From NCBI GenBank assembly GCA_965208325.1, contig OZ242326.1:2528001-2592000 (forward strand): a DNA stretch of 64,000 bases, given 5' to 3'. The translations under genes and the position numbers were made by a program. This DNA comes from Candidatus Poribacteria bacterium. GTDB lineage: Bacteria > Poribacteria > WGA-4E > PCPOR2b. Within the stretch, counting starts at the first letter, position 1, and the number at the start of each line of letters is the position of its first letter. The notes below the pieces were generated by a model that made no database searches, had not been told where the DNA came from, and saw nothing but the letters and a program-made list of their open reading frames with translations. Below, piece by piece: positions 524 to 64,000 of this stretch.

Positions 524-1015
524 TCAATTCAGTATATCCGTACGAGGGGAACCTGCCCGGCGAACGCTTGGCACGTTGAAGCTTTGCAAATCACGGGCCG
601 CTTGTTTTTTCTGAAATCGGAACGAGGGAGATCGAAAACGATCAAAACGGTGACTATCAAAGGCTGACGGCAACGGAAGCAGCGCATCTGTTCTTGCCAC
701 GGCGTCCGCCCAATCAACAAGCCGCGTATAGTGCAGATGGCGTTCTATCTGTCCTAACCACACGACGCCGTGCAGTGATGTGATACAGACGACATTTGCG
801 ACATCGCACGGTCCAAGGCAGCCTTCGTTGATTGTCAATGTTATTGAAGGGGACAGCCGCCTGTTCCGCCACTCCTGTTTGATCCATTCGACCGGTACCG
901 GCGGATTTCGTTTCTCTGTCACGCCGCAACAACAACCCTTACAGACCAGTATATGCGCTAAGACACGCCGCCTTGACGCCAGTTTGGGCGGCGATTTGAT
1001 TCCATCTGCTCCCAT
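524..1015 (-). CDS. thioredoxin-like (2Fe-2S) ferredoxin-domain protein
   Basis: VCKGCCCG ... GCLGPC motif pattern, typical of thioredoxin-fold 2Fe-2S proteins. Confidence 0.75.
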   Translation of the reverse strand: MGADGIKSPPKLASRRRVLAHILVCKGCCCGVTEKRNPPVPVEWIKQEWRNRRLSPSITLTINEGCLGPCDVANVVCITSLHGVVWLGQIERHLHYTRLVDWADAVARTDALLPLPSAFDSHRFDRFRSPSFRFQKKQAARDLQSFNVPSVRRAGSPRTDILN

Positions 1016-1098
1016 ACCTTGCTCCCGAATGTTACATCAGTGCGAATATACCGATTCATCACTACCCAATCAAGGGTAGTGATGAATTTTCTCGGCGC

Positions 1099-3027
1099 TC
1101 ATTTCAAAATAACCATCCGCTTCGTCTGATGGAAAGATGGCGTGGACAATCGGTAGAAATAGACACCACTTGAAACCGTCTCACCCGCATCATTTCGACC
1201 ATCCCAATAGGCGGCGCGCGCCCGGCCCTGATAGAAACCCGCTGGCTGGATGCCAATCGAAAGCGTTCGCACCGGTCGCCCGTTCGTATCGTAAATTGAT
1301 AGCGTCACAGGGGCTGACTCCGAAAGGCGATACGGAATCCATGTTTCGGGATTGAACGGGTTGGGATAGTTCTGCAAAAGTAGGCTCTGCTTCGGTATGC
1401 CAACCTCCTTAAGCGTAATCGGGAGAACTGCGTTTGCAAGCGTGTCTGGGGTCACAACGAACCTCAAACTCTCCGAAGCAATCTCTCCGGTTGCATCCGC
1501 AACGGTGACTTCCAGCGTGTCGCCAACGCGGACGACGCTCTGGCGTGAGAGATCGGCGGTCACTGCGGCAAAGTAGCCGCCTCGCACACGATTCGTCATA
1601 TTAGCGTTCGTCCGCAGGTTTCGTACAGTGACCAGATAACCTTCAAGGTTCTGCACGCCTTCTAATTGCCCGCTGACAACGAACGCCCAAGTGTTATCTG
1701 GCGAATCAATTGATCTTGCGACCGGTGCGGCAGAAACTTGCGGTTGATTGGTCCAAGGTGCCCCGACAAAGGCAACCTGTCGGGCGTGCGGCACGTTGAC
1801 GATGTATCCCTTTGCTCCTTCGATCGAAAACCCGTTGTCCGGTGCATCAGGCGTCCAGCCAACGAACTCTTGGTTGACATCATCTAGCCCAATTACTGTC
1901 GTGGCGCCAACCATCTCCCCCAACGACCGAGCGTTCACCTGCTGGCGCGGCTTCAGTGGTAAGGAGATCATGTTCAAGCCTTTGGAGAGAGATGCGAAGT
2001 AGACGTGACTGAAGTCATCCTCGTCTATAGGCATTGGCGTGGCAATGAAGCCGTGAATCTGATGTTCGCCGTCTTCCTCGTGAATTTCAAACCAGCCGAC
2101 AATGACGCCTTCATCGTTAATGGATTGTGCTATCGTGGCTTCTGCGCCGGGAATCCCGAACCGGTAGAACTCGCCCTCCGGAGTGCGTAGAAATCCGTGT
2201 ATTTCGGAGAAATCAAGCGGCGCGGTATGACCGACAATCCTCCCATGATTGTCTATGTCATCGGGGAGCGTATGCCGATCTGCGTCAATGGACAGAGTTG
2301 TGAACGCGCCATCCTCGTAAATCAGCCCATCAATTATCTGTGTTGGTGTAAATCCTGATTCAGGCAGATTCCAACCCGCCATCACACCGGCGTTATTGAT
2401 ACCACGAAAAACATTGCCGCCAACACCGCCCGAAGAGGGAACTTGCGCGAAAGTCCCGTCCGGTTCGCGAAGAAAACTGGTGATGACGATGTCGTTTTCT
2501 GTAGGAAAATCGAAATTATACGAAGTGAGTTGACCTGCGTCGTTGATACCCCATGCGTAGTTAAAGGCTGCACCCGGATTGACTGTGATAAACTCGCCGT
2601 CCGGTTCTCTCAGGAATCCGTGCTGCACGCCATCCGCATCTTTATACCGACCCGTGATTTGACCGGATGCATTGATTCCGAATGCGCGTGTGTCTGTTGC
2701 ACCTTCTGGGGCAATCGTCTCGAAGACACCGTTTCTCAGCCAGAATCCTTTCCGAACAGCGTTTGCACCTTCATAGCTCCCGACGATGTCTCCAGCGTTG
2801 TTGATACCGAAGAGTTCGGTCTCTGACGCGCCTGCGAACGGTACATCGACGACCGCAATATGATACGGAATACCGATTGTCAGGTGAATATCACCTGCCG
2901 GGAGGTCGGCGACATGTTCATGGTCGTGGTCATGGTCACCCTGTTGCGCGACGGCTTGCCATGAGATAGCCAAACAAAAAATCGAAACCGTAAGCAGAGC
3001 CAGTGCGGCTCTATTGTAAATACGCAT
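1099..3027 (-). CDS. secreted His-rich HAF-like repeat (propeller) protein with C-terminal FlgD-Ig/T9SS-A-like domain
   Basis: Signal peptide; GDHDHDHEH tract; repeated 'A.GINxxGxIVG...HGF' units; C-terminal LLQNYPNPFNPETWIPY...WDGRN...SGVYFY. Confidence 0.8.
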   Translation of the reverse strand: MRIYNRAALALLTVSIFCLAISWQAVAQQGDHDHDHEHVADLPAGDIHLTIGIPYHIAVVDVPFAGASETELFGINNAGDIVGSYEGANAVRKGFWLRNGVFETIAPEGATDTRAFGINASGQITGRYKDADGVQHGFLREPDGEFITVNPGAAFNYAWGINDAGQLTSYNFDFPTENDIVITSFLREPDGTFAQVPSSGGVGGNVFRGINNAGVMAGWNLPESGFTPTQIIDGLIYEDGAFTTLSIDADRHTLPDDIDNHGRIVGHTAPLDFSEIHGFLRTPEGEFYRFGIPGAEATIAQSINDEGVIVGWFEIHEEDGEHQIHGFIATPMPIDEDDFSHVYFASLSKGLNMISLPLKPRQQVNARSLGEMVGATTVIGLDDVNQEFVGWTPDAPDNGFSIEGAKGYIVNVPHARQVAFVGAPWTNQPQVSAAPVARSIDSPDNTWAFVVSGQLEGVQNLEGYLVTVRNLRTNANMTNRVRGGYFAAVTADLSRQSVVRVGDTLEVTVADATGEIASESLRFVVTPDTLANAVLPITLKEVGIPKQSLLLQNYPNPFNPETWIPYRLSESAPVTLSIYDTNGRPVRTLSIGIQPAGFYQGRARAAYWDGRNDAGETVSSGVYFYRLSTPSFHQTKRMVILK

Positions 3028-51339: not shown

Positions 51340-52929
51340 ATGAAGTTTCGACATTTACTACCGATTCTCCTAATTTCGTCCTTACGAACCGCCGCAAGTT
51401 TCGCTGACCGCGGCGATGAAATCCTTCCCTTAGTCCAGTCAGAAAACCTGAAAGCGCACATCATTGCCTTGCAGGAAAACGTACAGCAGACGCCAACTCC
51501 TGCATCGGAAAACCTCCCACCCTCGGATGCATCGGCAAACAACCCTGTAGCCTACCGCACGCGAAGTTCCTATCATCGCGACGCTGCGGATAATGCAGCG
51601 CGGTACATTGTAAACCAGTTTCGCCGCTCGCCGCGATTGGAAGTCGAAATAGAAGAATTCAGCGGGTTGAAAAACGTCGTTGCTAGGCTGCCTGCTCAGC
51701 ACGGTTCAAAAAGCGATCGAATCTTCGTTCTCTGCGCCCACTACGACAGCATAGGCGATCGGGATTACGCGGGTTGGAATCCATTGATTTCAGACGCGCC
51801 CGGCGCGAACGATAACGCGACTGGCGTCGCCGCGATGCTTGAGATTGCCCATCTGTTAAGCCGGTATAATTACGATCACGAGTTGCGGTTCATCGCACTT
51901 GACGGCGGAGAGATCGGACGACAGGGGAGTCTGCATCACGCCAAAAATGCAGTACAGGCAGGCGAAAACATTGTCCTTGCCATCAATATTGACATGATCG
52001 GCTTCAACTGGATAACGGAGCTCGTCGAAGTGCTCGCGAATAATTCGGACGACTCCTCTGCCTGGATTGGCGAGATGGCGTTGATAGCAAATGAATGGTA
52101 CGATATTGGATTGGAGGTCCTACCAATTCGTGATGGGTCGCTCAGCGCCGGCGATCACAGCCCGTTTTGGTATGAAGGCTATCGGGCGGTCACTTTCACT
52201 GAAAACACAACGCCGTGGCGAGATTCCCCCGGCTATGAAGCGAATTCGTTTTATCATACCTTTCGCGACACGGTTGAAAAGGTCAACTTGCAATTGGTTC
52301 GTAAAGTTACTCAACTTGCGCTGGTTATGCTGGATGGCCTGGCAAACCAATCATTTCAAAATGCCTCCACGCCCAGCGTTACAATCGATCCCACCCCCGC
52401 CGCGAACCTTAATCCGGTCAAAATCACGGGACGGTTCGAGTCCACCTATCCGGTCGAAATTGTCCTGAGTCCAGGCAATGTCCTCGCTAACCTAGACCGA
52501 TTTAACCGCACCTATCAAGCGGAAGTAACGTTGCAACCGGGGGGAAACCTCGTTCGTGCAACCGTTGTGTATCCACTTGGCGCAAGCTCTGTTGAACGCA
52601 CAGTCCTGTTTGAACCTGATTTTGAATGGATTAGCGCGGCGGTGTTTCCGAATCCGGCTCGATTCACTGATGATTTGACTCAATTGCGAGGGGAAGGCAA
52701 TTTACCTATGGAGGCGTTAAATTTTTTCATCTATGCGTCTGACGGTTCGTTAGTGAAACAGAAGATAGGTGTGCCGGATGGAACCGATCCGCGTATTTGG
52801 CGAGCCTGGTGGAATCACCAGAATGCCTCTGGGCGGCAGGTCGCTACCGGAATTTACGTGTGTAAATTTGAGGCGTCAGTTAAAGGCGAGACGTATTCGA
52901 GAATCAAAAAGCTGGCAATCGTTCGGTAG
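51340..52929 (+). CDS. M28 family peptidase with C-terminal FlgD/T9SS-like domain
   Basis: AHYDS, PGANDNATG, NIDMIG, GDHSPF and YHT..DT motifs; C-terminal FPNP...W...GRQVATGIY. Confidence 0.85.
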   Translation: MKFRHLLPILLISSLRTAASFADRGDEILPLVQSENLKAHIIALQENVQQTPTPASENLPPSDASANNPVAYRTRSSYHRDAADNAARYIVNQFRRSPRLEVEIEEFSGLKNVVARLPAQHGSKSDRIFVLCAHYDSIGDRDYAGWNPLISDAPGANDNATGVAAMLEIAHLLSRYNYDHELRFIALDGGEIGRQGSLHHAKNAVQAGENIVLAINIDMIGFNWITELVEVLANNSDDSSAWIGEMALIANEWYDIGLEVLPIRDGSLSAGDHSPFWYEGYRAVTFTENTTPWRDSPGYEANSFYHTFRDTVEKVNLQLVRKVTQLALVMLDGLANQSFQNASTPSVTIDPTPAANLNPVKITGRFESTYPVEIVLSPGNVLANLDRFNRTYQAEVTLQPGGNLVRATVVYPLGASSVERTVLFEPDFEWISAAVFPNPARFTDDLTQLRGEGNLPMEALNFFIYASDGSLVKQKIGVPDGTDPRIWRAWWNHQNASGRQVATGIYVCKFEASVKGETYSRIKKLAIVR

Positions 52930-53120
52930 CGGACAGAAAATTCGCGAGAAAACTTTTGTGACAGCGGAACGCTTCTTAGGTATCACTAAAGAAACATGGA
53001 CAAAACGAGGTCGTCTATGCTATTATTTTAGAAATGCTAGCGGAAATGATTCCCCTAGACCGATCCATAGCGAATCCCAACCATCATATACATAATTGCA
53101 CTGGAAGGAGGTGACAAGAA

Positions 53121-53417
53121 TTGCCTCAAAGAGAAGGAAAGCAGACCGATTTTAGAAGAAAGTCTGCACTGAAACACCTTCGCGCCGACCCGAAGAAACG
53201 TGAGCGGAACTTTAGACAGAAATCTGCTATGCGGACGATGGTGAAGAAGACTGAAGCTGTAATTGAAGAAAAGAACTTAGAGCAGGCGCAGGAAATATTT
53301 CGGCAAGCCGCCAGCCACCTAGACAGAGCTGCACAGAAGGGCATTATTAAAAAGGGGACGGCGAATCGGAAAAAATCTCGCCTAGCTCGCAGAATAAATA
53401 GCATGACCGTGGCTTAA
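53121..53417 (+). CDS. rpsT: 30S ribosomal protein S20
   Basis: KSALKH.R...RN...KSAMRT..KK and LDRAAQKGII...ANRKKSRL; AGGAGG RBS with TTG start. Confidence 0.95.
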   Translation: MPQREGKQTDFRRKSALKHLRADPKKRERNFRQKSAMRTMVKKTEAVIEEKNLEQAQEIFRQAASHLDRAAQKGIIKKGTANRKKSRLARRINSMTVA

Positions 53418-53597
53418 AGTAAGGGCTGAAAGTTCCTCAATCGCAACAGGTTGGCAAAAGCAGTTTTATTGGGCTCTCAGAATCGAATCTTCAGGTCGCA
53501 TCCGAGATTATTGCCAACATTTCAAGTATCATCGTTTGTTAGGGTGAGTATTCTGCTTTCCCCTTTGCTCTAATTAGTATTACTTGGGCTGTTGAAG

Positions 53598-53996
53598 ATG
53601 AATAGGAAAGTTCATACGCTAATCGGTCAATTGAAGCGGTTAGCCAAAAACCCGCCGAAAAACGATTCAAATTGCAACAAGGAATTGGAGCAAATTTTAG
53701 AACCGCTACGAGTTGAAGTGCGTAAAAAACGCTGGCAAATTCAGCGTCAACAGAATTATTTGTCAAGTGTTGTTGGCGAAATACAGAATCTTAAGGTTCA
53801 AATTCAGGAAAAACGGCTGATTCAGAATTTGGCGGGGAAGATTGATAGAAAGGATGCGAAGGTTTATCCAAACTCGGTTACTGAATATTGCCCTAAATGC
53901 CAGAAGAATGCCCTTATAGATAAATTTCCGTTTTATGGCAAAGTAACGAAAACCTGTCAAAATTGTGGGTATGGAAATCAGGTTGACATGTTTTGA
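53598..53996 (+). CDS. hypothetical coiled-coil protein with C-terminal zinc ribbon
   Basis: CPKC...CQNC; AT-rich. Confidence 0.55.
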   Translation: MNRKVHTLIGQLKRLAKNPPKNDSNCNKELEQILEPLRVEVRKKRWQIQRQQNYLSSVVGEIQNLKVQIQEKRLIQNLAGKIDRKDAKVYPNSVTEYCPKCQKNALIDKFPFYGKVTKTCQNCGYGNQVDMF

Positions 53997-54080
53997 ACGG
54001 AAGAGGTTGTAGCTTGTCCTCTCCAATAACCTTATTTTACCTTGAACGTTTGGTCAATACTGAAATTCACGCATCGGATA

Positions 54081-55421
54081 TTAGCGCGAAAGCAGTTCTC
54101 CCTGAATAAATTCGCCGTCTAACGCCAACAACTTCACCGGCATAATCCGGTTAATCGCAGAATCGGTACAATCCAGTAAAACGCGCAAGTAATTCCCCGT
54201 AAACCCCGCTAGCTGTCGATTTTCACCTTCCCGGCTATCCTCGACTAACACATCCATTGTCTTGCCCAACATCCGACGCCGGAATTTGTCTCGAAGTTGC
54301 TTTCCAAGCGCAATCATCGCCTTGCTTCGCTCCGCCGATTTGTGCGGCGGTATCTGATCGGGATACTCTGCTGCTGCTGTGCCTTGCCGAGGGGAATATC
54401 GAAACACGTGCAACTGGCTGAATCCCATCTCCTCGACGAATTGGAGCGAATCGTCAAAATTCGCATCGGTCTCCCCAGGGAAACCGACCATGACATCGGT
54501 GGTCACGGCGACGCTCGGGAAAGCCAGCCGCAGCGTTTCCACTAGGCGCCCATACCCGTCTGTCGTATACTGCCGGCGCATGCGGCGCAGAATTGTGTCG
54601 CTGCCCGACTGCAGCGGCAGATGGAAATGCGGCATGCACTTTGGCAAGTCTGCCATCCTATCTACAAGGTCCTCAGGGAAATTCATCGGTTCAATCGAAC
54701 TAAATCGGATGCGTTCAATCCCTTCGATGGGATGCACCCTCTCCAGAACATCGGCGAACGTCGATTTTCTCCGGTTGTCCTTCCCGTAAGTTCCCATGTG
54801 CACGCCTGTGATAACGACCTCTTTGTATCCGTTTGCGGCGATCTGCTCTGTTTCTTTCACGATATGCGCTACAGGGCGGCTGGTCATGCGTCCGCGGACA
54901 TAAGGGATGATACAGTAGGTACAAAAAGCGCTGCACCCATCTTGAATCTTTATGAGCGCACGCGTGCGTTGCGTCAAACCGCTCACGCCCATGTGACTAA
55001 ATCGGGCATGTTCACGGATCGGGTCATGCTGCACAGGTTTTATTCGTAAGAGCGGTGAATCATCTTCAGCCGCCTCACCGCCGTGAATTTCATTAAGATA
55101 CGCTTGGAGACTGGCTTTTTCGCGGTTTCCAAACACGAACGATACACCGGGTATCTTTTCGATTTCCCTCCGGCCGCTTTCCGCGTAACAGCCCGTAACG
55201 AGCACCTTGGCGTTCGGGTTCTTTCGGATGGCGCGGCGAATAGCCTGACGCGCTTTTTGGTCGGCAACATGCGTCACGGTGCAGGTGTTGATGAAATAAA
55301 TATCCGCGGATTCATCCTCATCAACGACGGTGTAACCGTTTCGCCGCACGGTTTCCTGCATTGACTGCGTATCATATTGGTTGACCTTGCACCCGAAGGT
55401 GATAAGCGCTGCTGTAGGCAT
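54081..55421 (-). CDS. mtaB: tRNA t6A37 methylthiotransferase
   Basis: TFGCKVNQYD, INTCTVT, KIQDGCSAFCTYC radical SAM motif, and TRAM C-terminus. Confidence 0.93.
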   Translation of the reverse strand: MPTAALITFGCKVNQYDTQSMQETVRRNGYTVVDEDESADIYFINTCTVTHVADQKARQAIRRAIRKNPNAKVLVTGCYAESGRREIEKIPGVSFVFGNREKASLQAYLNEIHGGEAAEDDSPLLRIKPVQHDPIREHARFSHMGVSGLTQRTRALIKIQDGCSAFCTYCIIPYVRGRMTSRPVAHIVKETEQIAANGYKEVVITGVHMGTYGKDNRRKSTFADVLERVHPIEGIERIRFSSIEPMNFPEDLVDRMADLPKCMPHFHLPLQSGSDTILRRMRRQYTTDGYGRLVETLRLAFPSVAVTTDVMVGFPGETDANFDDSLQFVEEMGFSQLHVFRYSPRQGTAAAEYPDQIPPHKSAERSKAMIALGKQLRDKFRRRMLGKTMDVLVEDSREGENRQLAGFTGNYLRVLLDCTDSAINRIMPVKLLALDGEFIQGELLSR

Positions 55422-55446
55422 TTATCTTACTCTCGCTGAAATTTAC

Positions 55447-55479
55447 AGAAACCGAGTTTTGAAGAAAAAACTCGGTTTC
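55447..55479. repeat. AAACCGAGTTTT inverted-repeat element
   Basis: AGAAACCGAGTTTT-gaagaa-AAAACTCGGTTTC. Confidence 0.8.
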
Positions 55480-55529
55480 AAGTCACAGTTTGCTTGACCC
55501 CATTACAAGATTTACGTATACCTCGTCAA

Positions 55530-56147
55530 CTACTCAAGCCGTTGAAATGCGTAATCTGTGTCTTGGACACCCGAATGACAACCTTCGCAGAGCTTGCCTT
55601 TTGCGAGCACTGTAAATGCCGCGTCCCCTTCGCGGCGCGAGTATTCGATGAACGTCCAGTCATTGGCACCGGGATTACTTCCCGCCTCTTTCCTCATGAG
55701 GGCAAATATTCCGATGAAGTCTTGGTCGGATCGGTAAACGGGTTTAACAATGATACTTCCGTCCGGATAAGGGAACTTCTGCTTTCCGTCCGGTGCGAGG
55801 GCTTCGCGTTCCTGATTGATAAGGATATCCTTCGTGCCGAAGTGTGCGGGCGAGCCGCCTACAATCGGCTCCGCGTTCATCTTTAGCCAAGTCTCAAACC
55901 CGGCGGTGTAGTCTGGCAGTCCGGGAAGCGCTTCCGGTTGTTCCACCATCATGCCGTCCGGGTCTTTATCCCCGTTATCAGGTTGCATCTCTCCGTCTGT
56001 CATGGGAGATACCGGTTCGCCCTCATCGCCGCACGAGAGAAAGACCGGTGCCCCAATCAGAATCAGCGCAAGTATGAGATTCATCCGATAGTTATTTTGC
56101 CGTATTATGATATTCGCCTCCATTTCGTTGTTTGAATTTTTAGCCAT
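55530..56147 (-). CDS. cytochrome P460/c'-beta family lipoprotein (start uncertain)
   Basis: Lipobox FLSC; PDGSIIVK, MRK and W.F.EY motifs; C-terminal CEGCH...DYAF. Confidence 0.75.
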   Translation of the reverse strand: MAKNSNNEMEANIIIRQNNYRMNLILALILIGAPVFLSCGDEGEPVSPMTDGEMQPDNGDKDPDGMMVEQPEALPGLPDYTAGFETWLKMNAEPIVGGSPAHFGTKDILINQEREALAPDGKQKFPYPDGSIIVKPVYRSDQDFIGIFALMRKEAGSNPGANDWTFIEYSRREGDAAFTVLAKGKLCEGCHSGVQDTDYAFQRLE

Positions 56148-56492
56148 TTGATTACGCCGCCAGCGAACGCCGCAACCGCGCTGCACAGAACCACATGCAA
56201 CAGTGTGATTAGAACGCAGTTGTTTACCGCAGCGGCCCGTCAATCTGTCAATTGTAATTTGAGCCGCCTGTTTTGTCAATTAAAATCCCATAGTTGCCGT
56301 CAACGGATGAATGGATTTTACGCTTGACACCGGCGTGCACCTTTGCCAAAATTGACAATGGCGCGGTGGATAGCGCGTAGGCAGAAAAAGCGGTTGGACG
56401 AGTCCGGCATGATGAAGGATTCACCGCAATTCCGCGGCAAGGGTCTAGACTTTCCCTACCTTGCGGCAGTATACGGCTGAGGCTGAACGCAT

Positions 56493-57098
56493 ATGGCAAA
56501 ATCTGACGATTCAAAGGCACACACCAGACGATCCTTTTTTCGGGAGGCGCTGTCTAGGCTTGCGCAGCCGGTCGCAGAGTACGTGGATTCACAGATTGGC
56601 GCGTATATCCCCGCCGAAAAAGCATTGTTGCGTCCGCCAGGGGCGATTATTGAGGATGAGTTTTTGGATACGTGTGTGCGCAGCGGAGCCTGCGTAAACA
56701 GTTGTCCGGCTCGTGCAATCCAACCTATCAATGCACGCGATCCCGATCGGGCGGGAACCCCGTTCATCGATCCGGACTATCAACCGTGCGTGGTCTGCGA
56801 AACGCTCGAATGTATGAACGTTTGCCCAAGCGGGGCGCTGCAAAAACTGACGGTCAACGAGATTCAGATTGGGTTAGCGGGCGTCAATTATGATACGTGC
56901 CTTCGGACACAAGCAATCGGCTGCCGCGACTGCGTCGACAGTTGTCCAATCGGCGAGCGCGCGATTCGGATAGACGCACATAACCGGGTTGAGGTCATGT
57001 CGCCGGGCTGCGTCGGCTGCGGCGTCTGCCAGTATCACTGTCCAACCTCGCCAAAATCAATTCGCGTTGAAGCGATAAAGGCGGTGGAGAGTGGTTAG
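56493..57098 (+). CDS. NapG/MauM-like 4Fe-4S ferredoxin
   Basis: RRSFF, LRPPGA, multiple CxxCxxxCP clusters. Confidence 0.85.
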   Translation: MAKSDDSKAHTRRSFFREALSRLAQPVAEYVDSQIGAYIPAEKALLRPPGAIIEDEFLDTCVRSGACVNSCPARAIQPINARDPDRAGTPFIDPDYQPCVVCETLECMNVCPSGALQKLTVNEIQIGLAGVNYDTCLRTQAIGCRDCVDSCPIGERAIRIDAHNRVEVMSPGCVGCGVCQYHCPTSPKSIRVEAIKAVESG

Positions 57099-57118
57099 TG
57101 AAGAGTTAAAAAAGCTAT

Positions 57119-57260
57119 TGTAGGTTGGGTTGATCGGCGTGGACGAACCAAAGGAAGTTTGCTGCATGCGGTCGGTGTTTCGACTGCGGTCAAAATGTGA
57201 ACCGATGAAGCGTAACCCAACGTTTTTCAAACCTCCGGACGACAGAAAAGCGTTGGGTTT
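57119..57260. repeat. GTAG-type REP/REPIN-like element (partial)
   Basis: TGTAGGTTGGGTTGATCG...GCGTAACCCAACG...CGTTGGGTTT. Confidence 0.75.
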
Positions 57261-57278
57261 AGGAAATGCTTTCGCGTT

Positions 57279-57923
57279 CTAAAACCGGAGCGTTAATTGC
57301 GTACCTAACCCGTTGCGTGACGCAACAGGGTCCAAGCCAAGTGTGGCTCGGTCGCCGTCAAGCTGAAACAGGTGTCCGAAAGATGCAACTTGATTCTGCT
57401 GGTTGATTTTATTTGCTGACATCGGCGCATCAATCAGCGACCATATTGCTCCGCCGAACAAGAGCAGATAACCGGGAACTCTAACCCAGCCACCATTATC
57501 GCCGTCTGGGTTATCATCGGATTCGTCCTTGTTATCACCGCCCGCACTCAATGTGAGTCCCAAACCTACGATTCCCGCGCCGAATTGGATTGCTCCCTTC
57601 GCATATTGGCCGTTGTAGAATTGCCCGGCTCCAATGATTGGAAACGAAAGACCGAGCGCTACCATGGGATTTTTCTTTTTCTCAATTCCATGCATTCTCA
57701 TCACGGTCTCCTTGGAGATTTTTTCAATCTCTTTCATCTTGAATCGGAATGCCTTGCCGTCAAATCTTACTATATTCAGCGATTTTTCTGGAATCTGTTC
57801 AATGATTGTTCCGCGAATGATACCTCCATTTTTCAAATAAACAACATCTTCAAACTTCTGTGCAACCACCTGAGTCGTTACGAAAAATGCCACGGCGGAT
57901 GCAATCAATATAAATCGGTACAT
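57279..57923 (-). CDS. hypothetical exported or membrane protein
   Basis: Signal peptide; DVVYLKNG.IIRG.I domain; KNP..A..LS...GAGQFYNG motif; terminal Phe. Confidence 0.7.
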   Translation of the reverse strand: MYRFILIASAVAFFVTTQVVAQKFEDVVYLKNGGIIRGTIIEQIPEKSLNIVRFDGKAFRFKMKEIEKISKETVMRMHGIEKKKNPMVALGLSFPIIGAGQFYNGQYAKGAIQFGAGIVGLGLTLSAGGDNKDESDDNPDGDNGGWVRVPGYLLLFGGAIWSLIDAPMSANKINQQNQVASFGHLFQLDGDRATLGLDPVASRNGLGTQLTLRF

Positions 57924-58122
57924 ACCTTCCTCCTGAAGTCTTTGTGTTCGGACGCGCTCGTAGGTTAGAGCTGCTATCTTACCAAATGGAGCCGATTGCC
58001 ATTGAGCAGGGCAATTTTATCACGGCTAACTGGATGCGTCAATACTCGATTTTCAGACATTTCGCGGATTGTAGGTACGATGCAACCTACAGGATTTTAG
58101 CTGATAAACGTTAAGAAGCATT

Positions 58123-58481
58123 TGTAGGTTGGGTAGAGCGGGTTCAGCCAAAAATCGCCCATTATGACGAACCGCATCCGTCAATCTAACCACGCACAAA
58201 AGCCGATGAGTGTAGCGAAACCCAACGCTTTTAAAACCTCACCCATCCCAATTGATTTCCAAACACCGACACCGGGGCTAATCCCCAACAACGCTTCTGT
58301 TTCTTCTATTCCAATTGCATTAATCATTCCGACCGACAACCGGCAACCGAAACGCCTCAAAAACGCTGGGTTTCGGAGAAGATTGGAGAGGAGAGGAGAG
58401 GACTATAACGGGAGACAACTATCGCCCTCGTTATTCACTCGATTGATCCTTCGCTATTCGCTCAGTTGGTCCTAACCTACA
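58123..58481. repeat. long GTAG-type REPIN-like element with internal inserts
   Basis: TGTAGGTTGGGTAGAGCG...GTAGCGAAACCCAACG...GCTGGGTTTCG...CCTAACCTACA. Confidence 0.75.
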
Positions 58482-59027
58482 AAAACTGATGCCACTGTTT
58501 AAAAATTTGGGATATTTGATTTGCTTATTTCTTGAGCATTTGCAACATGCGAAAATTAGCGAAAATGGGCGCAACGCTAGACAGAGACTAGGTTTGCGGT
58601 GTTGAGTATTTTTGAGTATCAAAAATAATAAGTTGAGAACGCTCATTTTTGAATGCGCTGACAAGTTGATTGATTCAGCCATCATAGATAGCCTCTTAAA
58701 ATGTGCATTGGTTCGTCCGAATCGTCGTCGACTGGCATTCCGTTTGGGAGTTTTTCAACGGGGAAACGTGTGATCGGCAACTCGACCGCGCCCTGGAGCG
58801 CATAGGGACCGCCGCATAAATCGCCGGTTGGGAATTGCCGCATCTGGCACATGAACACTGCGGGAAGAGTTTCGTTGAACGCGATCCAACCATTGGCGAC
58901 AACCGGTTCTAATGCCGAGATAAGGTCAAACTTGCGGCCGCGTCATTTGTGGAATTAGGGGTGGACAGCGGGATTAATATGGCGTGTTTACCGTGATTCC
59001 TTGATAGGTCGATTGTTTCTTCAAAGG

Positions 59028-59480
59028 CTAAACGGTTGCAGGGTCAACAATCACGATGCCTTCGTCGTGGTAACGCTCAAAGTCATTTGTGTTGAAAGTC
59101 AATATATGTGTTACTCTGTTGTAAACCATTGACGCGACTAAACGGGCGTCGAAAGTCTGTATTCCCGATACGTCATATTTCACTACGAGGCGTCGCCATA
59201 TGCGATAGATAGCAGGTGAATCGGTAAGCAAAGGGAAGATTTTCTCTGCTCTTAACAAGAGGTGATCTATTTGGGAAATGTCTAAACCGTAGCCGTTTTT
59301 GACAGTCGATCGGGTTGAAACGGTCCAGAACTCCGCAAAATTCTGCGATGTGGTTTTCAGTACGTCGTTGTTCGCCCACAGTTTATTCACAGCGGATTGG
59401 ACAGTTGTATAATTTGGATCCGTCGTGTGCAAAAGCCGTAAGAGAACATTGGTATCGACCAGATAAATCACGACTATCAA
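59028..59480 (-). CDS. PIN-domain (VapC-like) ribonuclease toxin
   Basis: YLVDTNVLL, QNFAEF, FDARLVA and LTFNTNDF acidic tetrad; start overlaps or abuts the upstream stop. Confidence 0.9.
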   Translation of the reverse strand: MIVVIYLVDTNVLLRLLHTTDPNYTTVQSAVNKLWANNDVLKTTSQNFAEFWTVSTRSTVKNGYGLDISQIDHLLLRAEKIFPLLTDSPAIYRIWRRLVVKYDVSGIQTFDARLVASMVYNRVTHILTFNTNDFERYHDEGIVIVDPATV

Positions 59481-62479
59481 TCGTCCTCGTATATTCCTTC
59501 ACGGCTGACCGCGTGATTTGAGAGGGGTGGGGCATCAGGACCAGCGAATTCCATGAATTTGTCTGCTAGCTGGCCAGCCAATGCTTCTAAATCAAGCCTG
59601 CCTGTTCGGAGGAGATTTTCATGGGCGCGGGCTGCATGCCGACGTACGTTCTCATTGCGGCTTTCAATTCCGGCTTTCAGGATAGTTTCTGCTCCTTCAG
59701 TGTAAATGTCAACGGTGTCACTAGTGAATCCATCAGTTAGCTTTGCAAAGCAGGCGACGACTTTGGCAGTATAATCGGGAAGCATCTCGCACAAAGCGTC
59801 AATTTGAATTGCGACTGACATTTTTTCCGCTTTGCTGACGTCCAGGATCCTGGAGTACGCGTTTAATCGCCAGTGAGCATCTAAACACTTGGCTTTCAGC
59901 CAGAATGTGAACTTGCCGAGTTCCTTGGGTTCTTTACTAGTGAAACGCCAATTAAAAAAGTCTATAATTCTGGCCTTTACAATTGCATTAAGTTCGCCAT
60001 TGGTATCCCGCAAGATTCGACCCACGTGGTCAAACAAATTCTCCCAATGCTCAAGATTGTTGGCAGTAGCCTTGTAATAGTCCTCTAGCAGACTTGTGTC
60101 GCCTGTGAGGGGATACGTCTCCCACAAATAGAAGGTAAATAGTCGTTGGCCAAGTAGATAAATCAGTTGGGTGGCGTTGGATTGCCTCTCATTGAATTTA
60201 GCTAGATTCTGTAGCGCAAATTCAAAATCGCCGCGAAGAACCTTAAAGGTAGGTTTAAACGGTTTATTGCAGCTCAAGAAGCCGTTAAAGGCGGCAAGCC
60301 ATTTGGGGAACTCAGCGCGCGGAAACAAGTCTGATTTGTGTTCAGTCGCCCATGCCTCATTTAGGTAAAAAATTCGATTGTAGTTCTTTCCCAGAATAGC
60401 ATACTCTGGCTGGGTCACGGGCTGTCCCGTTTCCGAAGCAAACCGACTTTCAAGAATCGCCGTTAATTCAGAGACTTCAGATTCTGAATCATGTCTTCGC
60501 ACCCAGAATCCGAATTGAACCAACGCGTCGAGTGCACGGCTTCGCGTGTTATTGATTCCTTCGGTGATTAGGTCGTTTTGGTTCAAAAAGTGCCGCTTGT
60601 CTCGATCCAGCCATGAATCATATTGTGTGCAAAGCATCTTCAGCAGTGTGGAAAGTTGCAGCCGTGCGGAGATGGGAACGTTTACATCGTCTTGCAGGCA
60701 TACTTCGATAAAATCACAGACTGCCCGCCGGGAATTGTACCAGTTAGGGTTGTCTCGGGATTCGTCGCCTTGTTTACCTAGCCTATAGTCTTCCTTGAGA
60801 TCTTGGTCAGGGTGGGAAAGTACCCATTCGCTAAATGATAACCACGCGCTAAGCCTGTCGAAGTGCTTCGATTTTACGTCCGTTTGCATGGCGACAATCA
60901 TCATTCGCACGTAAATGGGTCTCTCAATTTTTTCGCGATTTTCAATCCAGAATTTGCGCCTTTTGAGATTCGGGATAATGTGTTGCGTGAAAAAAGTTTG
61001 AAACGCGACGCTGAGGCCTTCAATGTTGACTTCTATAAAATGATTACCTTTGTAAAGGGGCTTTTCTCCCTCGTACTTGTTTATGTAGGCGAGTAGTTCT
61101 TCATCGGTGAGTTTGGAAAGGTCGTCGGGTGAGCGTGGGCTACGACTAGAAACTGGTCCTCCTCTTGTCTTTATTAGCGGATAGTCGTCATCGGATATCT
61201 CATCCTCAGCCTGAGCCTCAGATTCTAACTGTTGCAAATAGGTTTCATATTCGCCGAATAGCACGGGCGCAAAAGGCTTGAGTTGCTTGCGATGGAAACG
61301 GAGCTGAAGTTGTCTAAACTCGTCCTGGTTAAGGGTATCTTTTGAGGGGCCGCTGCGGATGCAATCGAAAATATGTCTAAGCTCTTCCTTTGTAAGCAAT
61401 GCCGTACCAAACTGTTCACAAGCTCTTCGAATCATTTGTTGAAATTCATAACCGTATTCCAATCGTTGATAATCTTGATAATCTAGAATCATTTGCCGAA
61501 TCCACGGTTTGGTTTGCTCACTTGGATATTTGGCATAGAGGTGCTGGCGCAGGCGTTTGAATATACGCCAGTGCTGGTTGCGCAATGCTTCGTCCAAATC
61601 GAGAATTGAATCGGGTCTTTTTTCGTAAACCCGACGACAAGCGAAGGTGAGTGTATGAACCAGTGATTTATCAGGGGCTTCATAATCATCCTCAGATTCA
61701 TCGAGCCGTACACACCAGTAATCGGAATAGTCGACATCGTTGTCAAAGTCCCCTTGATGCGTTCGCACATCAATCATATTTGCGGCGGCATAGATGAGAA
61801 TGCACGCAACCTTGTAGGGTTCTTCCTCGGCAAGCGGACGAACGCCTTTGGACAATATCTCACCGTATTCCCAACTACCAATTCGAGGGGACGGTTCAAG
61901 TTGCGTCGCCGCTACCCTAGTTGCTATTGCGGCTAAATCTTGCTGATTCTCTCTCCGCCGTTTCCGCTTGTCCCTTTCTTGGGAATCAGGCAAAAACGCA
62001 ACTAGTATTTTTGAAAGTTCCAATGCATCCGATATCTGATTCTCCTTGGTCCAATGGGCTAACAAGTCTGAGTATTGATACGTCCAAACTTGGTGTTCTA
62101 GCTCTAGAGATTCAAGTATTTTCGGCATCAGTTTGGCGGAATGTTCTCCGCGGAGTTCCAATGCAATTTCCAAAATGTCATCATAAACGCTAGGATTGTC
62201 AACTTTAGGGAGTCCCAACACTAAATTAACAACTTGATCGGGCACATCGCACGACACATTTTTGAGGTATTGAAGTTCGGGCCAACGGGGGAATTGAACG
62301 TAGCCATCGTCAAAGTATCTAATTTTTGGGGGTGACTGAAAAATTCCGCGTTTGACGAGCGGTTGAATCCAGAGGGGATTCGACAACCTTGAGAAAAAAT
62401 ACCGGCGCCCGGTTCCTTTTTTGACCAGCCTTAAGGCCTTATCTATCATTTCATTCGTTGGTTTCTTCCAAGATTTCAT
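59477..62479 (-). CDS. 1000-aa alpha-helical hypothetical protein with C-terminal antitoxin-like tail; candidate defence protein
   Basis: Long intact ORF with no signal peptide and no NTPase motif seen; ends ALAGQLADKF...PPLSNHAVSREGIYEDD. Confidence 0.75.
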   Translation of the reverse strand: MKSWKKPTNEMIDKALRLVKKGTGRRYFFSRLSNPLWIQPLVKRGIFQSPPKIRYFDDGYVQFPRWPELQYLKNVSCDVPDQVVNLVLGLPKVDNPSVYDDILEIALELRGEHSAKLMPKILESLELEHQVWTYQYSDLLAHWTKENQISDALELSKILVAFLPDSQERDKRKRRRENQQDLAAIATRVAATQLEPSPRIGSWEYGEILSKGVRPLAEEEPYKVACILIYAAANMIDVRTHQGDFDNDVDYSDYWCVRLDESEDDYEAPDKSLVHTLTFACRRVYEKRPDSILDLDEALRNQHWRIFKRLRQHLYAKYPSEQTKPWIRQMILDYQDYQRLEYGYEFQQMIRRACEQFGTALLTKEELRHIFDCIRSGPSKDTLNQDEFRQLQLRFHRKQLKPFAPVLFGEYETYLQQLESEAQAEDEISDDDYPLIKTRGGPVSSRSPRSPDDLSKLTDEELLAYINKYEGEKPLYKGNHFIEVNIEGLSVAFQTFFTQHIIPNLKRRKFWIENREKIERPIYVRMMIVAMQTDVKSKHFDRLSAWLSFSEWVLSHPDQDLKEDYRLGKQGDESRDNPNWYNSRRAVCDFIEVCLQDDVNVPISARLQLSTLLKMLCTQYDSWLDRDKRHFLNQNDLITEGINNTRSRALDALVQFGFWVRRHDSESEVSELTAILESRFASETGQPVTQPEYAILGKNYNRIFYLNEAWATEHKSDLFPRAEFPKWLAAFNGFLSCNKPFKPTFKVLRGDFEFALQNLAKFNERQSNATQLIYLLGQRLFTFYLWETYPLTGDTSLLEDYYKATANNLEHWENLFDHVGRILRDTNGELNAIVKARIIDFFNWRFTSKEPKELGKFTFWLKAKCLDAHWRLNAYSRILDVSKAEKMSVAIQIDALCEMLPDYTAKVVACFAKLTDGFTSDTVDIYTEGAETILKAGIESRNENVRRHAARAHENLLRTGRLDLEALAGQLADKFMEFAGPDAPPLSNHAVSREGIYEDD

Positions 62480-63107
62480 CCATACTCCTTATCCGCTCAA
62501 GTTCGCTGCTAGCAGCGGTGTATAGAAAGTCATCAAGGTTCTGAAAATGTCTAACTACTTCAGAGGATGCAGCCATGTCAAATTCGCCATCACGTAGATG
62601 GGTATGTTCCAAAAACCACCGTCTTGCGCGCTTCCATTCTGTCAGAAGGTTTTGGGGAATCTCATCCGCGTCGGCATAATCCAAAAAGGTTGTGAAGAAT
62701 AGGCTTTCTGCTTTTGAGGCTCGGTGACGTCCATCTCTGTGTTTATTGATTAGAACCTGTATCTTTTCACAAATTTCATAAGGGATTAAATTTCCAATTT
62801 CGGTGTTATCTATATTACTAACAACTTCCACTCCCCATTCGTCTTCCCAATGATTTTGTATTTCACCCACAAGTTGCACATATTGAACCGACTCTGGCTG
62901 GATTCCCAACCGGGGAAGGCTGTTCATCAAATCCCTGCCGGTGTGGGATACGAACGTAATGTAGCCCGGCAGTTTCTTTTCTAGGAGATTTAATGCACCT
63001 TTGTAAGCTTCAGCAAATACCGGTAACTGGAGTTCATCGTTAATCCAGTTAAATACTGTCTGCTGATCTGTCGAAAGCGTAACGCCCTCATTGCTTGTAT
63101 GATTCAA
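62451..63107 (-). CDS. hypothetical helical protein, HEPN-like candidate nuclease
   Basis: SHTGRDLMNSL and W...RRWFLEHTH motifs; overlaps the next gene by 29 nt. Confidence 0.55.
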   Translation of the reverse strand: MNHTSNEGVTLSTDQQTVFNWINDELQLPVFAEAYKGALNLLEKKLPGYITFVSHTGRDLMNSLPRLGIQPESVQYVQLVGEIQNHWEDEWGVEVVSNIDNTEIGNLIPYEICEKIQVLINKHRDGRHRASKAESLFFTTFLDYADADEIPQNLLTEWKRARRWFLEHTHLRDGEFDMAASSEVVRHFQNLDDFLYTAASSELERIRSMDEILEETNE

Positions 63108-63561
63108 AGTAGAAACTCTCTAATGGGTTGAAAACCTATATGTCATAAAATGCACGATTTTACGCCTAATCTCCCACGCTGACACCGAAATCCTCGTCCC
63201 CTATCTCTGTAACTTTCACATACAATCGGTTCTTGTCCACTAGGTTCGCCGTGAACTTACCCCCATCCTATGGACAGTGATGAATACGACTTAAGCTGGA
63301 AAACCTTCACAGTTTGCCCTGTTTCAAACGCTGGAATTTATTGGTAATATACCTTATGCAGCGTGTGAAAGTCAAGCGATTGAGCGATAGGTAAAGCACT
63401 TTTGAGTTGGGTTGAGAGGGCTATCGAAACCAAACTTCTTCTTCGATTAAACTGTTTTTGGCGAGTGATTTAAATTGAAGTCGGCAGGACGTTTTGATAG
63501 AATGACGCGGATTATCCTCTATTTTCGATACGCCAAGTGTATAGTAAAGACTGATACGCCA

Positions 63562-64000
63562 ATGCCTATGAATGCCAAAAACCTGCCTGGTGCGGTAAAC
63601 AACCAATCACTGTTTTCGGATTACTACCTCGACTCCCTGATCATTGACCAGCCGCAGTGGAGGAGTACACCGAAAATTGAATCGGATTACGCCGCAATTA
63701 AAGCCCGCGTTGACGCCGTCGCCCCCAACGCAGAACACCTCAACGAGTCACAAACTGAACGCGAACTCATCCAACCGCTGCTCGAACTGTTAGGGCACGT
63801 TTTCGAGGTGCAGCCCGCACTCCAAACATCGTTGGGCACCAAGAGACCAGATTACGCCTTCTTCGAGTCGACAGACGCGCACGATACGTCGAAACCTCAC
63901 ATCAACACCAACGAGTTCTTCAAAACGGCTTTCGCCATCGGGGATGCGAAAGCGTGGTCACGCAATCTAGACCGGAAAGCACAGGGACGGGGCGACCCGT
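63562..64000 (+). CDS. N-terminus of a type IIG (Eco57I-like) restriction-modification enzyme (runs off window)
   Basis: Manual translation: MPMNAKN...LFSDYYL...NESQTERELIQPLLELLGH...RPDYAFF...IGDAKAW..NLD, a PD-(D/E)xK nuclease core. Absent from the ORF track because it has no stop within the window. Confidence 0.8.
   Translation, partial: MPMNAKNLPGAVNNQSLFSDYYLDSLIIDQPQWRSTPKIESDYAAIKARVDAVAPNAEHLNESQTERELIQPLLELLGHVFEVQPALQTSLGTKRPDYAFFESTDAHDTSKPHINTNEFFKTAFAIGDAKAWSRNLDRKAQGRGDP

Follow-up and report, generated by a model that had tools for sequence, protein, structure and literature searches.

A tetratricopeptide-repeat (TPR) sensor common to Avs7 and Dsr1 recognizes the major capsid protein of phages, according to a bioRxiv preprint of January 2026 (PMC12803255). 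As the main text of that preprint describes it, the sensor also occurs in proteins without a STAND NTPase, where it is joined to diverse N-terminal effectors that include a HEPN-like RNase; binding of the capsid protein and defence are known there only for SeAvs7 and EcDsr1. The anticodon nuclease PrrC is reported to be kept latent by the type I restriction-modification (R-M) enzyme EcoprrI, and the same source describes HEC-03, which consists of an ATP-binding cassette (ABC) ATPase and a VapC-like PIN protein (10.1101/2024.01.29.577857). In CapRelSJ46, toxin and antitoxin are reported to be a single polypeptide, and the antitoxin domain is itself the part that senses (PMC10865869). It is still an open question by what route toxin-antitoxin modules come to be linked to the sensing of phages. 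We address it here with a three-gene locus at positions 59028-63107 of a 64,000-nucleotide (nt) stretch from Candidatus Poribacteria (GCA_965208325.1, contig OZ242326.1), the whole of which we call the window. In this locus a large protein of the Avs7/Dsr1 class ends in a peptide that appears to derive from an antitoxin, and its gene runs directly into a gene for a PIN toxin.

The list of open reading frames (ORFs) made by program for the window contains three overlapping ORFs on the minus strand, divergent from an R-M gene. The parts of the locus are as follows.

62451..63107, minus strand: ORF A, 218 amino acids (aa), TTG start; an all-helical putative effector subunit, a separate gene in the window.
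59477..62479, minus strand: ORF B, 1000 aa, ATG start.
59591..62479, minus strand: residues 1-963 of ORF B; a probable sensor of the Avs7/Dsr1 class, built as an alpha-solenoid and lacking SIR2.
59477..60430, minus strand: the recombinant C-terminal third of B (residues ~684-1000), acquired with the tail and probably the PIN gene.
59480..59590, minus strand: the antitoxin-derived tail, residues 964-1000 of B.
59028..59480, minus strand: ORF C, a PIN (VapC-like) toxin gene, 150 aa, with its start at TTG 59480 or GTG 59471.

ORFs A and B overlap by 29 nt. The TGA stop of B (59477-59479) overlaps the TTG start of C, and a GTG found 5 bases past the stop of B would give the typical VapC N terminus MIYLVDTN; the product is of 147-150 aa depending on the start. 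An initial annotation, made from the letters of the sequence, had described three overlapping, co-directional genes divergent from a type IIG R-M gene, with the stop of B overlapping the start of the PIN gene. The ORF list and our domain search agree with this description.

The annotation had further proposed that the end of B resembles the C terminus of the small antitoxins that precede PIN genes of this subfamily. The peptide it quoted corresponds exactly to residues 964-1000. We compared 30 loci that contain relatives of the PIN, taken from Poribacteria, cyanobacteria, Acidobacteriota, Latescibacterota and others. In all 30 an upstream ORF ends at the start of the PIN gene; its product is of 74-116 aa in 29 loci, and is a 664-aa fusion protein in the other. 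The motif P/S-LSD-x-A/S-x-SR-E/A-x-IY is clear in 28 of the loci and degenerate in two (L053 and L058). Aligned with the last 45 aa of the free antitoxins, the tail of B has an identity of 32-62%, with S32, R38, I41 and Y42 invariant. At the level of sequence, this confirms that the tail is homologous to the C termini of the antitoxins of this PIN family, and the proposed likeness is borne out. About 50 N-terminal antitoxin residues that are seen in L021, L035 and L039 are missing from B. The free antitoxins of the family match no Pfam or NCBIfam model.

No second copy of the antitoxin was detected that might serve the PIN instead. Using tblastn, the tail finds only the end of B itself in the 4.7-Mb genome, and a profile of the tail has one match there (G000), within a frame of 1003 aa; the earlier statement that a separate antitoxin gene is lacking thus holds for the genome. 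Among 176 genomes of the phylum the tail motif is present in 94, and the profile gives 110 matches. Eight of these lie in frames longer than 250 aa, seven in B (G000, G020, G022, G024, G025, G026 and G028) and one in an HsdM (G074), and the remainder in frames of 19-203 aa. Among the 110 matches, fusions of the tail are therefore restricted to defence proteins, B and HsdM.

The partner of this peptide is a PIN-domain protein (Pfam PF01850, E = 3e-10). It is also matched by the VapC-family model TIGR00028 (E = 6e-11), below the cut-off of that model. Four acidic residues, D6, E47, D108 and D130, are invariant in 26 members of the PIN family, and all four are present in the window PIN. Position 107 (59151-59153), which adjoins the catalytic D108, is F in the window PIN and H in at least 90% of the 26 members. 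In a tree of the family the PIN proteins associated with B in the window and in L009, L010 and L021 form one group, with support of 94/97, the place of L016 being unresolved; the branch of the window PIN has a length of 0.49, against 0.13-0.18 for L009, L010 and L021. The ratio of nonsynonymous to synonymous polymorphism (pN/pS) of the PIN gene is 0.29-0.42, with 0.30-0.35 for the window gene. PIN genes of the family are present in 87 of the 176 genomes of the phylum, most copies lying with small antitoxins far from B. The nearest relatives of solved structure are VapC proteins, and they are distant (E ~1e-3).

The possible interaction of tail and toxin was studied by modelling the PIN (26-row alignment) together with residues 886-1000 of B (21-row alignment), in three runs and with three controls. 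The median score of the complex was 0.80 (0.81, 0.80 and 0.80), while the best of the three controls scored 0.00. A score of 0.80 is reached by 116 of 157 solved complexes and by 2 of 215 mismatched pairs, counts that apply here only approximately, own alignments having been used. At least 88% of the contacts are common to the runs, with a partner pLDDT (the predicted local confidence) of at least 60. The predicted interface sets residues 964-1000 of B against PIN residues that include 7-8, 47, 107-108 and 130, i.e., around D6, E47, D108 and D130. A search by sequence gives no solved structural relative of the tail. The model supports a tail that binds the PIN and covers its active site, in line with the suggestion of the initial annotation that the large protein might also neutralize the toxin.

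B is matched by no Pfam or NCBIfam family; weak Pfam rows (REV, TFIIE and DBL_C) were below their cut-offs and were discarded, and phmmer against the sequences of the PDB gave a chance-level match alone (E = 0.43). The PADLOC Dsr1 model PDLC04166, by contrast with these, matches B with E = 6.8e-24 and 81.7 bits. Residues 5-765 align to positions 302-1026 of the 1227 in the profile, which is the part that lies behind SIR2, and the same model is matched by the relatives P0003, P0009 and P0011. A Pfam search finds SIR2 in neither A nor B nor the fused relatives. Since it is without SIR2, B is not DSR1 proper, and we rejected that assignment, the alignment beginning only at profile position 302; judged by homology, B is a member of the described Avs7/Dsr1 sensor class.

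In the AlphaFold2 (AF2) model of B (55-row alignment; pLDDT 83.3, predicted template-modelling score 0.54) the protein forms a solenoid made of helices throughout. In this model, which leaves out the PIN, the last 22 residues (979-1000) have a pLDDT below 50. The architecture of the Avs7/Dsr1 class is of TPR/alpha-solenoid type, bilobed and sharply bent. Foldseek of the B model finds HEAT/ARM solenoids of a generic kind and places the Avs4 sensor at rank 35; neither Dsr1 nor Avs7 is among the listed matches. The proposal that the large protein is a phage sensor thus gains support from its homology to the phage-sensor domain of the PADLOC Dsr1 model, while the guard mechanism that had been attached to it stays a matter of inference, weighed below.

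B is found in 62 of the 176 genomes of the phylum. The survey of homologs was made with the best 120 of 916, of which 119 are non-self; the closest among the matches listed (86% identity) bears the name Candidatus Poribacteria, as do most of the related loci. The tail is carried by 19 of the 119. All 19 have an N terminus of the pP_pnuc_1 type fused to the sensor (P0068 being truncated at the N terminus). The other 100 are without the tail; almost all of them stop ~31 residues sooner, their last residues being ...DLLDLDD or a near variant of it. Besides that of the window, six genomes of the phylum carry the fusion of B and tail.

The association with the PIN was examined in 30 B loci (the window and 29 others) by inspection of 1.5-kb flanks. 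The tail is present in eight, fused to B in seven and separate in one. In five of these the PIN gene is intact (L001, L009, L010, L016 and L021). The three others hold decayed states of the gene: it is frameshifted in L011 and reduced to a 26-aa remnant in L007, while L008 has no PIN gene and shows two in-frame stop codons in its tail. Within 1.5 kb of B, a PIN gene is missing from all 22 loci that have no tail. The single separate case, L021 (G021:C5, ~668-1500, minus strand), is the unfused intermediate: a tail-less B is followed by a spacer of ~110 nt, a separate antitoxin of 91 aa that keeps its N-terminal half, and then the PIN gene, the unit lying between mod and res.

The tail is under purifying selection. 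Its ratio of nonsynonymous to synonymous divergence (dN/dS) is 0.02-0.15, compared with 0.13-0.34 in the preceding 83 codons, at a synonymous divergence (dS) of 0.3 to saturation. The junction of B, tail and PIN gene is bridged by contigs from a second sample (X4; 835 nt, 0 differences), from another study (X6; 928 nt, 20 differences) and from a more distant relative (X7; 506 nt, 46 differences). Because X4 and X6 bridge it, the junction is not an artefact of assembly. The fusion is thus far from peculiar to this assembly, being found in 19 of 119 homologs, in six other genomes of the phylum and on independent contigs. The initial annotation had offered, as its alternative, that a deletion accidentally fused B to the remnant of a vapB gene. 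The origin so proposed is supported by the unfused state in L021, but the word accidental does not fit a fusion that is conserved.

A second carrier of the tail was observed. In L044:1126-3557 (G074:C535) a type I HsdM is fused in frame to the antitoxin tail, giving the protein of 664 aa mentioned above, and the PIN gene follows. Its identity as HsdM is clear from Pfam (N6_Mtase, 1e-63, and HsdM_N) and from PADLOC (MTase_I, 1e-242 over residues 33-511). The C-terminal helix of HsdM runs into residues ~22-76 of an antitoxin of the 76-aa type. The antitoxin subtype, the junction and the carrier all differ from those of the B fusions, and so the HsdM fusion arose independently of them. This is a single observation, on a 3.7-kb contig of a metagenome-assembled genome that is 73% complete. 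A phmmer search with the last 165 aa against 1.84 billion representative sequences gave 2862 matches; none of the best 150 covers the part that corresponds to the tail (query residues 111-165), the furthest reaching residue 132, and clustering at 50% identity could hide further examples.

The history of the window locus can be read from its close relatives. Over residues 1 to ~690, B is 98-100% identical to the tail-less P0003. From about residue 700 the identity to P0003 is 28-68%, while that to the tail-bearing P0011, P0012 and P0015 is 64-94%. ORF A is 100% identical to the cluster P0124, and P0124 and P0003 probably come from one close relative. The window DNA is found in sponge-metagenome sequencing runs, none of those listed being an RNA run, and one 9.5-kb contig from a sponge metagenome (X5) matches the window at 60321-63200 only; the differences crowd at 60353-60429, after which the contig runs for at least 255 letters unlike the window. 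The switch of identity at ~690-700 and the divergence of X5 mark the window B as a recent recombinant: its C-terminal third arrived together with the tail, and presumably also with the PIN gene, as a single piece. Alleles with and without this piece coexist in sponge metagenomes.

In other genomes the module has a characteristic setting. Mod 5' of it and/or Res 3' of it lie within 1.5 kb in 23 of the 30 B loci (both in 9, Mod only in 11 and Res only in 3). With Mod and/or Res in the flanks of these 23 loci, the family of A and B, with or without the PIN, is a module embedded in type III R-M. The order is mod, B with tail, PIN, res in G024; mod, A, B, separate antitoxin, PIN, res in G021; and res, an ORF of unknown function, mod, A, B, integrase in G031. 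In G031 the gene directly 3' of the tail-less B (L063:13922-14905) is of the phage-integrase family, and its position next to B suggests that the module lies at the edge of a mobile island. Directly 5' of the type III mod gene of G021 there is a pair composed of an ABC-type ATPase (AAA_15/AAA_21) and a DUF4435 protein (L065:14620-16544, minus strand), probably one more defence system within the island that carries the module there.

In the window this setting has been reduced, and the flank 5' of A contains two further features.

63145..63258, minus strand: what is left of the 3' end of a type III R-M mod gene, interrupted by in-frame stops.
63475..64000, plus strand: the 5' part of a type IIG-like R-M gene that runs past the end of the window, the whole gene encoding 1316 aa.

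About 130 nt 5' of A are conserved in relatives, where they are the end of the type III Mod gene. Searching with Mod of G021 and G031 by tblastn gives 53-67% identity over 30-38 aa, and alignment of the DNA reveals stop codons where the relatives read D-K-A-L-N-R; an intact Mod gene stands at the same place in the relatives. The divergent gene (L061:1476-5426) has the domains Eco57I (1.6e-32), N6_Mtase (2.5e-14), MmeI_Mtase and TaqI_C, for which reason we call it type IIG-like. On the other side, the ~1.1 kb 3' of the PIN gene (57924-59027) contain no ORF of convincing length; no remnant of res, A, B or PIN was found in them, and they do not resemble the sequence that flanks related loci. Over 57900-63600, a search of Rfam gave at E <= 1 a single lncRNA row at chance level, and no tRNA was found in 52000-64000. 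Promoter-like sites (10, against 6.8 +/- 2.5 in shuffled sequences) and terminator-like sites (5, against 5.3) are not above the shuffles. A search of the window's own genome gave no paralogue of A, B, the PIN or the tail.

ORF A belongs to a family of 242 homologs of ~210-220 aa. It lies directly 5' of B in 21 of the 29 other B loci, and in P0009, P0091 and P0096 a domain of the A type forms the N terminus of a fusion protein with B of ~1170 aa. Since A adjoins B in the loci and is fused to its N terminus in relatives, we interpret it as a split-off module of the effector position. A different N terminus occupies this position in 23 of the 26 listed proteins longer than 1150 aa. That of P0011 passes the Pfam model pP_pnuc_1 (PF18165), with 28.2 bits against a cut-off of 26.3, and those of P0012, P0014 and P0015 are slightly under the cut-off. 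ORF A itself has no match to pP_pnuc_1 in a Pfam search, and that assignment was rejected for it; a weak Methyltransf_11 row was below its cut-off and was likewise discarded. Between the A family and the pnuc-type N termini there is a collinear, weak similarity (hhalign probability 2%, E = 0.025), and BLASTP of A with P0015 gives E = 0.009 at the same N-terminal place, also weak. Our literature search returned nothing on pP_pnuc_1 or PF18165.

The initial annotation had called A HEPN-like. H55, R58, N62 and H170 are invariant in the A family and H168 is conserved in at least 90% of it. In the window, R162/R163 followed by H168 fits the spacing of the HEPN motif Rx4-6H; conservation at these arginines stays under 90%, and the invariant H55, R58 and N62 lie in an earlier helix. 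The AF2 model of A is a helical bundle (pLDDT 74.5), the HEPN fold being a four-helix up-down bundle. Foldseek against the PDB finds nothing at E <= 0.001. An exhaustive VIA search returns many HEPN chains at Z of 6-7.4, values that are common for helical bundles; among these are 1ufb, 1wwp, 8xdj, 1jog, 2hsb, 5yep, 3o10 and 4nqf, at Z of 6.2-7.3. Because Foldseek finds nothing and the Z values are below the level that is reliable for helical bundles, we treat the HEPN-like nature of A as a lead.

These observations can be assembled into a model. We suggest that A and B constitute a two-gene defence module, in which A would be a putative helical effector of nuclease type and B the sensor of a phage protein. 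This module, which in relatives lies inside a type III R-M operon, would have captured a resident VapBC-like toxin-antitoxin pair. Deletion would have removed the N-terminal half of the antitoxin and left its toxin-binding C-terminal ~37 residues as the C terminus of the sensor. By lying over the active site of the PIN RNase translated along with it, the sensor would then hold this enzyme inactive. The PIN would be a second, latent effector, set free once infection triggers, inhibits or degrades the sensor or stops its production, whereupon it would cut RNA and stop growth, in the manner of a guard or tripwire. We put the chances of this reading, a defence sensor that doubles as the antidote of the PIN with the PIN as latent guard effector, at about even. 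Binding of the PIN (from the model only), its toxicity, its release and the role in defence are things that we infer. A more general form of the proposal is possible, though we hold it with distinctly less conviction: the antitoxin tail might be a portable tripwire tag that wires a suicide RNase to the integrity of a defence protein, a piece of ~40 residues attached independently to an Avs7/Dsr1-type capsid sensor within type III R-M and to the type I methylase HsdM, such that the PIN fires when a phage has the guarded protein inhibited, degraded or shut off.

Several findings weigh against a guard function. A large, stable carrier is unlike a labile antitoxin, and the tail could bind the PIN permanently. 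The score of the complex is a measure of model confidence, and may lean on the general binding mode of VapBC. The window PIN lies on a long branch and has F in place of the near-invariant H107. Of its type III R-M context the window retains the Mod remnant only, with the type IIG gene as neighbour instead. Most of the family is without tail and PIN (100 of 119 listed homologs; 22 of 30 loci), and the PIN is for this reason an accessory. Finally, the PIN is broken or missing in 3 of the 7 fused loci (L007, L008 and L011), so that selection for it is not universal.

That last observation bears on two other explanations. The tail may serve simply as an addiction device, in which loss, silencing or truncation of B would free the PIN, arrest the cell and so make the island hard to lose, without any role in the sensing of phage. 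The pair of PIN and antitoxin is common as a free-standing unit, the PIN occurring mostly far from B where the phylum has it; the fusion removes the N-terminal domain of the antitoxin and leaves neutralization alone; and defence islands turn over fast, as the coexistence of alleles with and without the tail illustrates. Yet broken PIN genes stand beside an intact B in L007 and L011, from which it appears that such a lock is easily lost, and both of the fusions found among the 110 matches are on defence proteins, which fits a functional link better, albeit with n = 2. We therefore regard addiction as unlikely, if worth keeping in view. The other explanation is a neutral accident, by which a deletion joined B to a vapB-like remnant and the product persists only because loss of the tail would kill the cell while the PIN is intact. 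The unfused neighbour state in L021 is what such an origin would leave, and so are the 3 of 7 fused loci with a broken or missing PIN, particularly L008, in which the tail has taken on two stops after the loss of the PIN. Against this, the fusion spans lineages with saturated synonymous divergence and the tail evolves under the constraint described above; it is kept in the 19 homologs, was recently imported by recombination, and is accompanied by a PIN gene with low pN/pS. An accident of this kind seems to us quite improbable.

A third possibility is that the tail is a tether, docking the PIN to the sensor complex as a working nuclease that becomes active only on assembly with the phage target. 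The family uses exchangeable effectors, either fused (of the pP_pnuc_1 type or the A type) or separate, and a docking peptide would be another way of bringing one in. However, the modelled interface covers the catalytic positions 7-8, 47, 108 and 130, as inhibitory antitoxins do, and the positions conserved in the tail are those conserved in the free antitoxins, for which inhibition is the established role. We consider the tether the least probable of these explanations, and the sensor that holds a latent PIN in check remains our preferred reading.

The locus is of interest for the coupling of toxin-antitoxin modules to phage sensing because all stages are preserved: the toxin-antitoxin pair on its own, the pair placed 3' of a sensor gene (L021), the fusion of sensor and antitoxin accompanied by the PIN, and decayed copies. 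The pair of alleles with and without the cassette within one species is a directly testable case, in which a short transferable peptide would be the sole link of sensor and toxin. If the PIN is released on sensing, or upon attack on the sensor, this would point to a simple rule by which bacteria build layered or guard immunity, and the peptide could become a tool for tethering toxins to chosen proteins.

The initial annotation had called the locus an undescribed defence operon. This is too broad for the sensor class, which with its swapped N-terminal effectors is in the preprint of 2026, but it stands for the combination of tail and PIN, which is undescribed in the literature searched. The words PIN, antitoxin and VapC are absent from the main text of PMC12803255, whose supplementary tables could list such architectures; none of the papers searched or read reports that a sensor of the Dsr1/Avs7 type, or HsdM, bears an antitoxin tail. 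The class of sensor, the VapBC module and the idea of a guard are each known already; what appears to be new is a grafted antitoxin tail acting as the putative sole antidote of a PIN on a defence protein. With Avs7 and Dsr1 the locus shares the alignment of B with the non-SIR2 part of Dsr1, the predicted helical solenoid and the exchangeable N-terminal effectors. It differs from them in having no SIR2 and no STAND NTPase, in an effector that is a separate gene, and in the C-terminal antitoxin tail with the PIN downstream.

The likeness to VapBC is seen in the PIN with its four acidic residues, in an antidote region directly upstream with coupled stop and start, in the C-terminal peptide predicted to lie over the active site, and in the common free two-gene versions of the family. 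Here, in contrast, the N-terminal domain of the antitoxin is replaced by a sensor of 963 residues, and there is no antitoxin gene of its own. Because that domain is gone, neither autoregulation of the VapB type nor a small, labile antitoxin can be assumed. HEC-03, as reported, likewise pairs a VapC-like PIN with a large partner other than VapB within a defence system; the partner in our locus differs in bearing a bona fide antitoxin-derived tail. With CapRelSJ46 the locus would have in common an antitoxin element within a phage-sensing protein, both classes of sensor being reported to recognize the major capsid protein, whereas in our locus the toxin is made as a protein apart, and an unrelated large sensor bears the antitoxin peptide as an appendage.

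The arrangement of PrrC with EcoprrI, as it is described, offers a further parallel. In both a latent RNase in or beside an R-M operon would be held by a defence protein and is proposed to fire when that protein is disturbed; the relatives of our module lie between type III mod and res, and the tail in L044 is on a type I HsdM. The RNase here is a PIN, not an anticodon nuclease linked to an ABC ATPase, and the holding element is a covalently attached peptide derived from a toxin-antitoxin pair; a trigger resembling Stp is not known for it. Were the tripwire tag real, it would be the covalent counterpart of the PrrC-EcoprrI arrangement.

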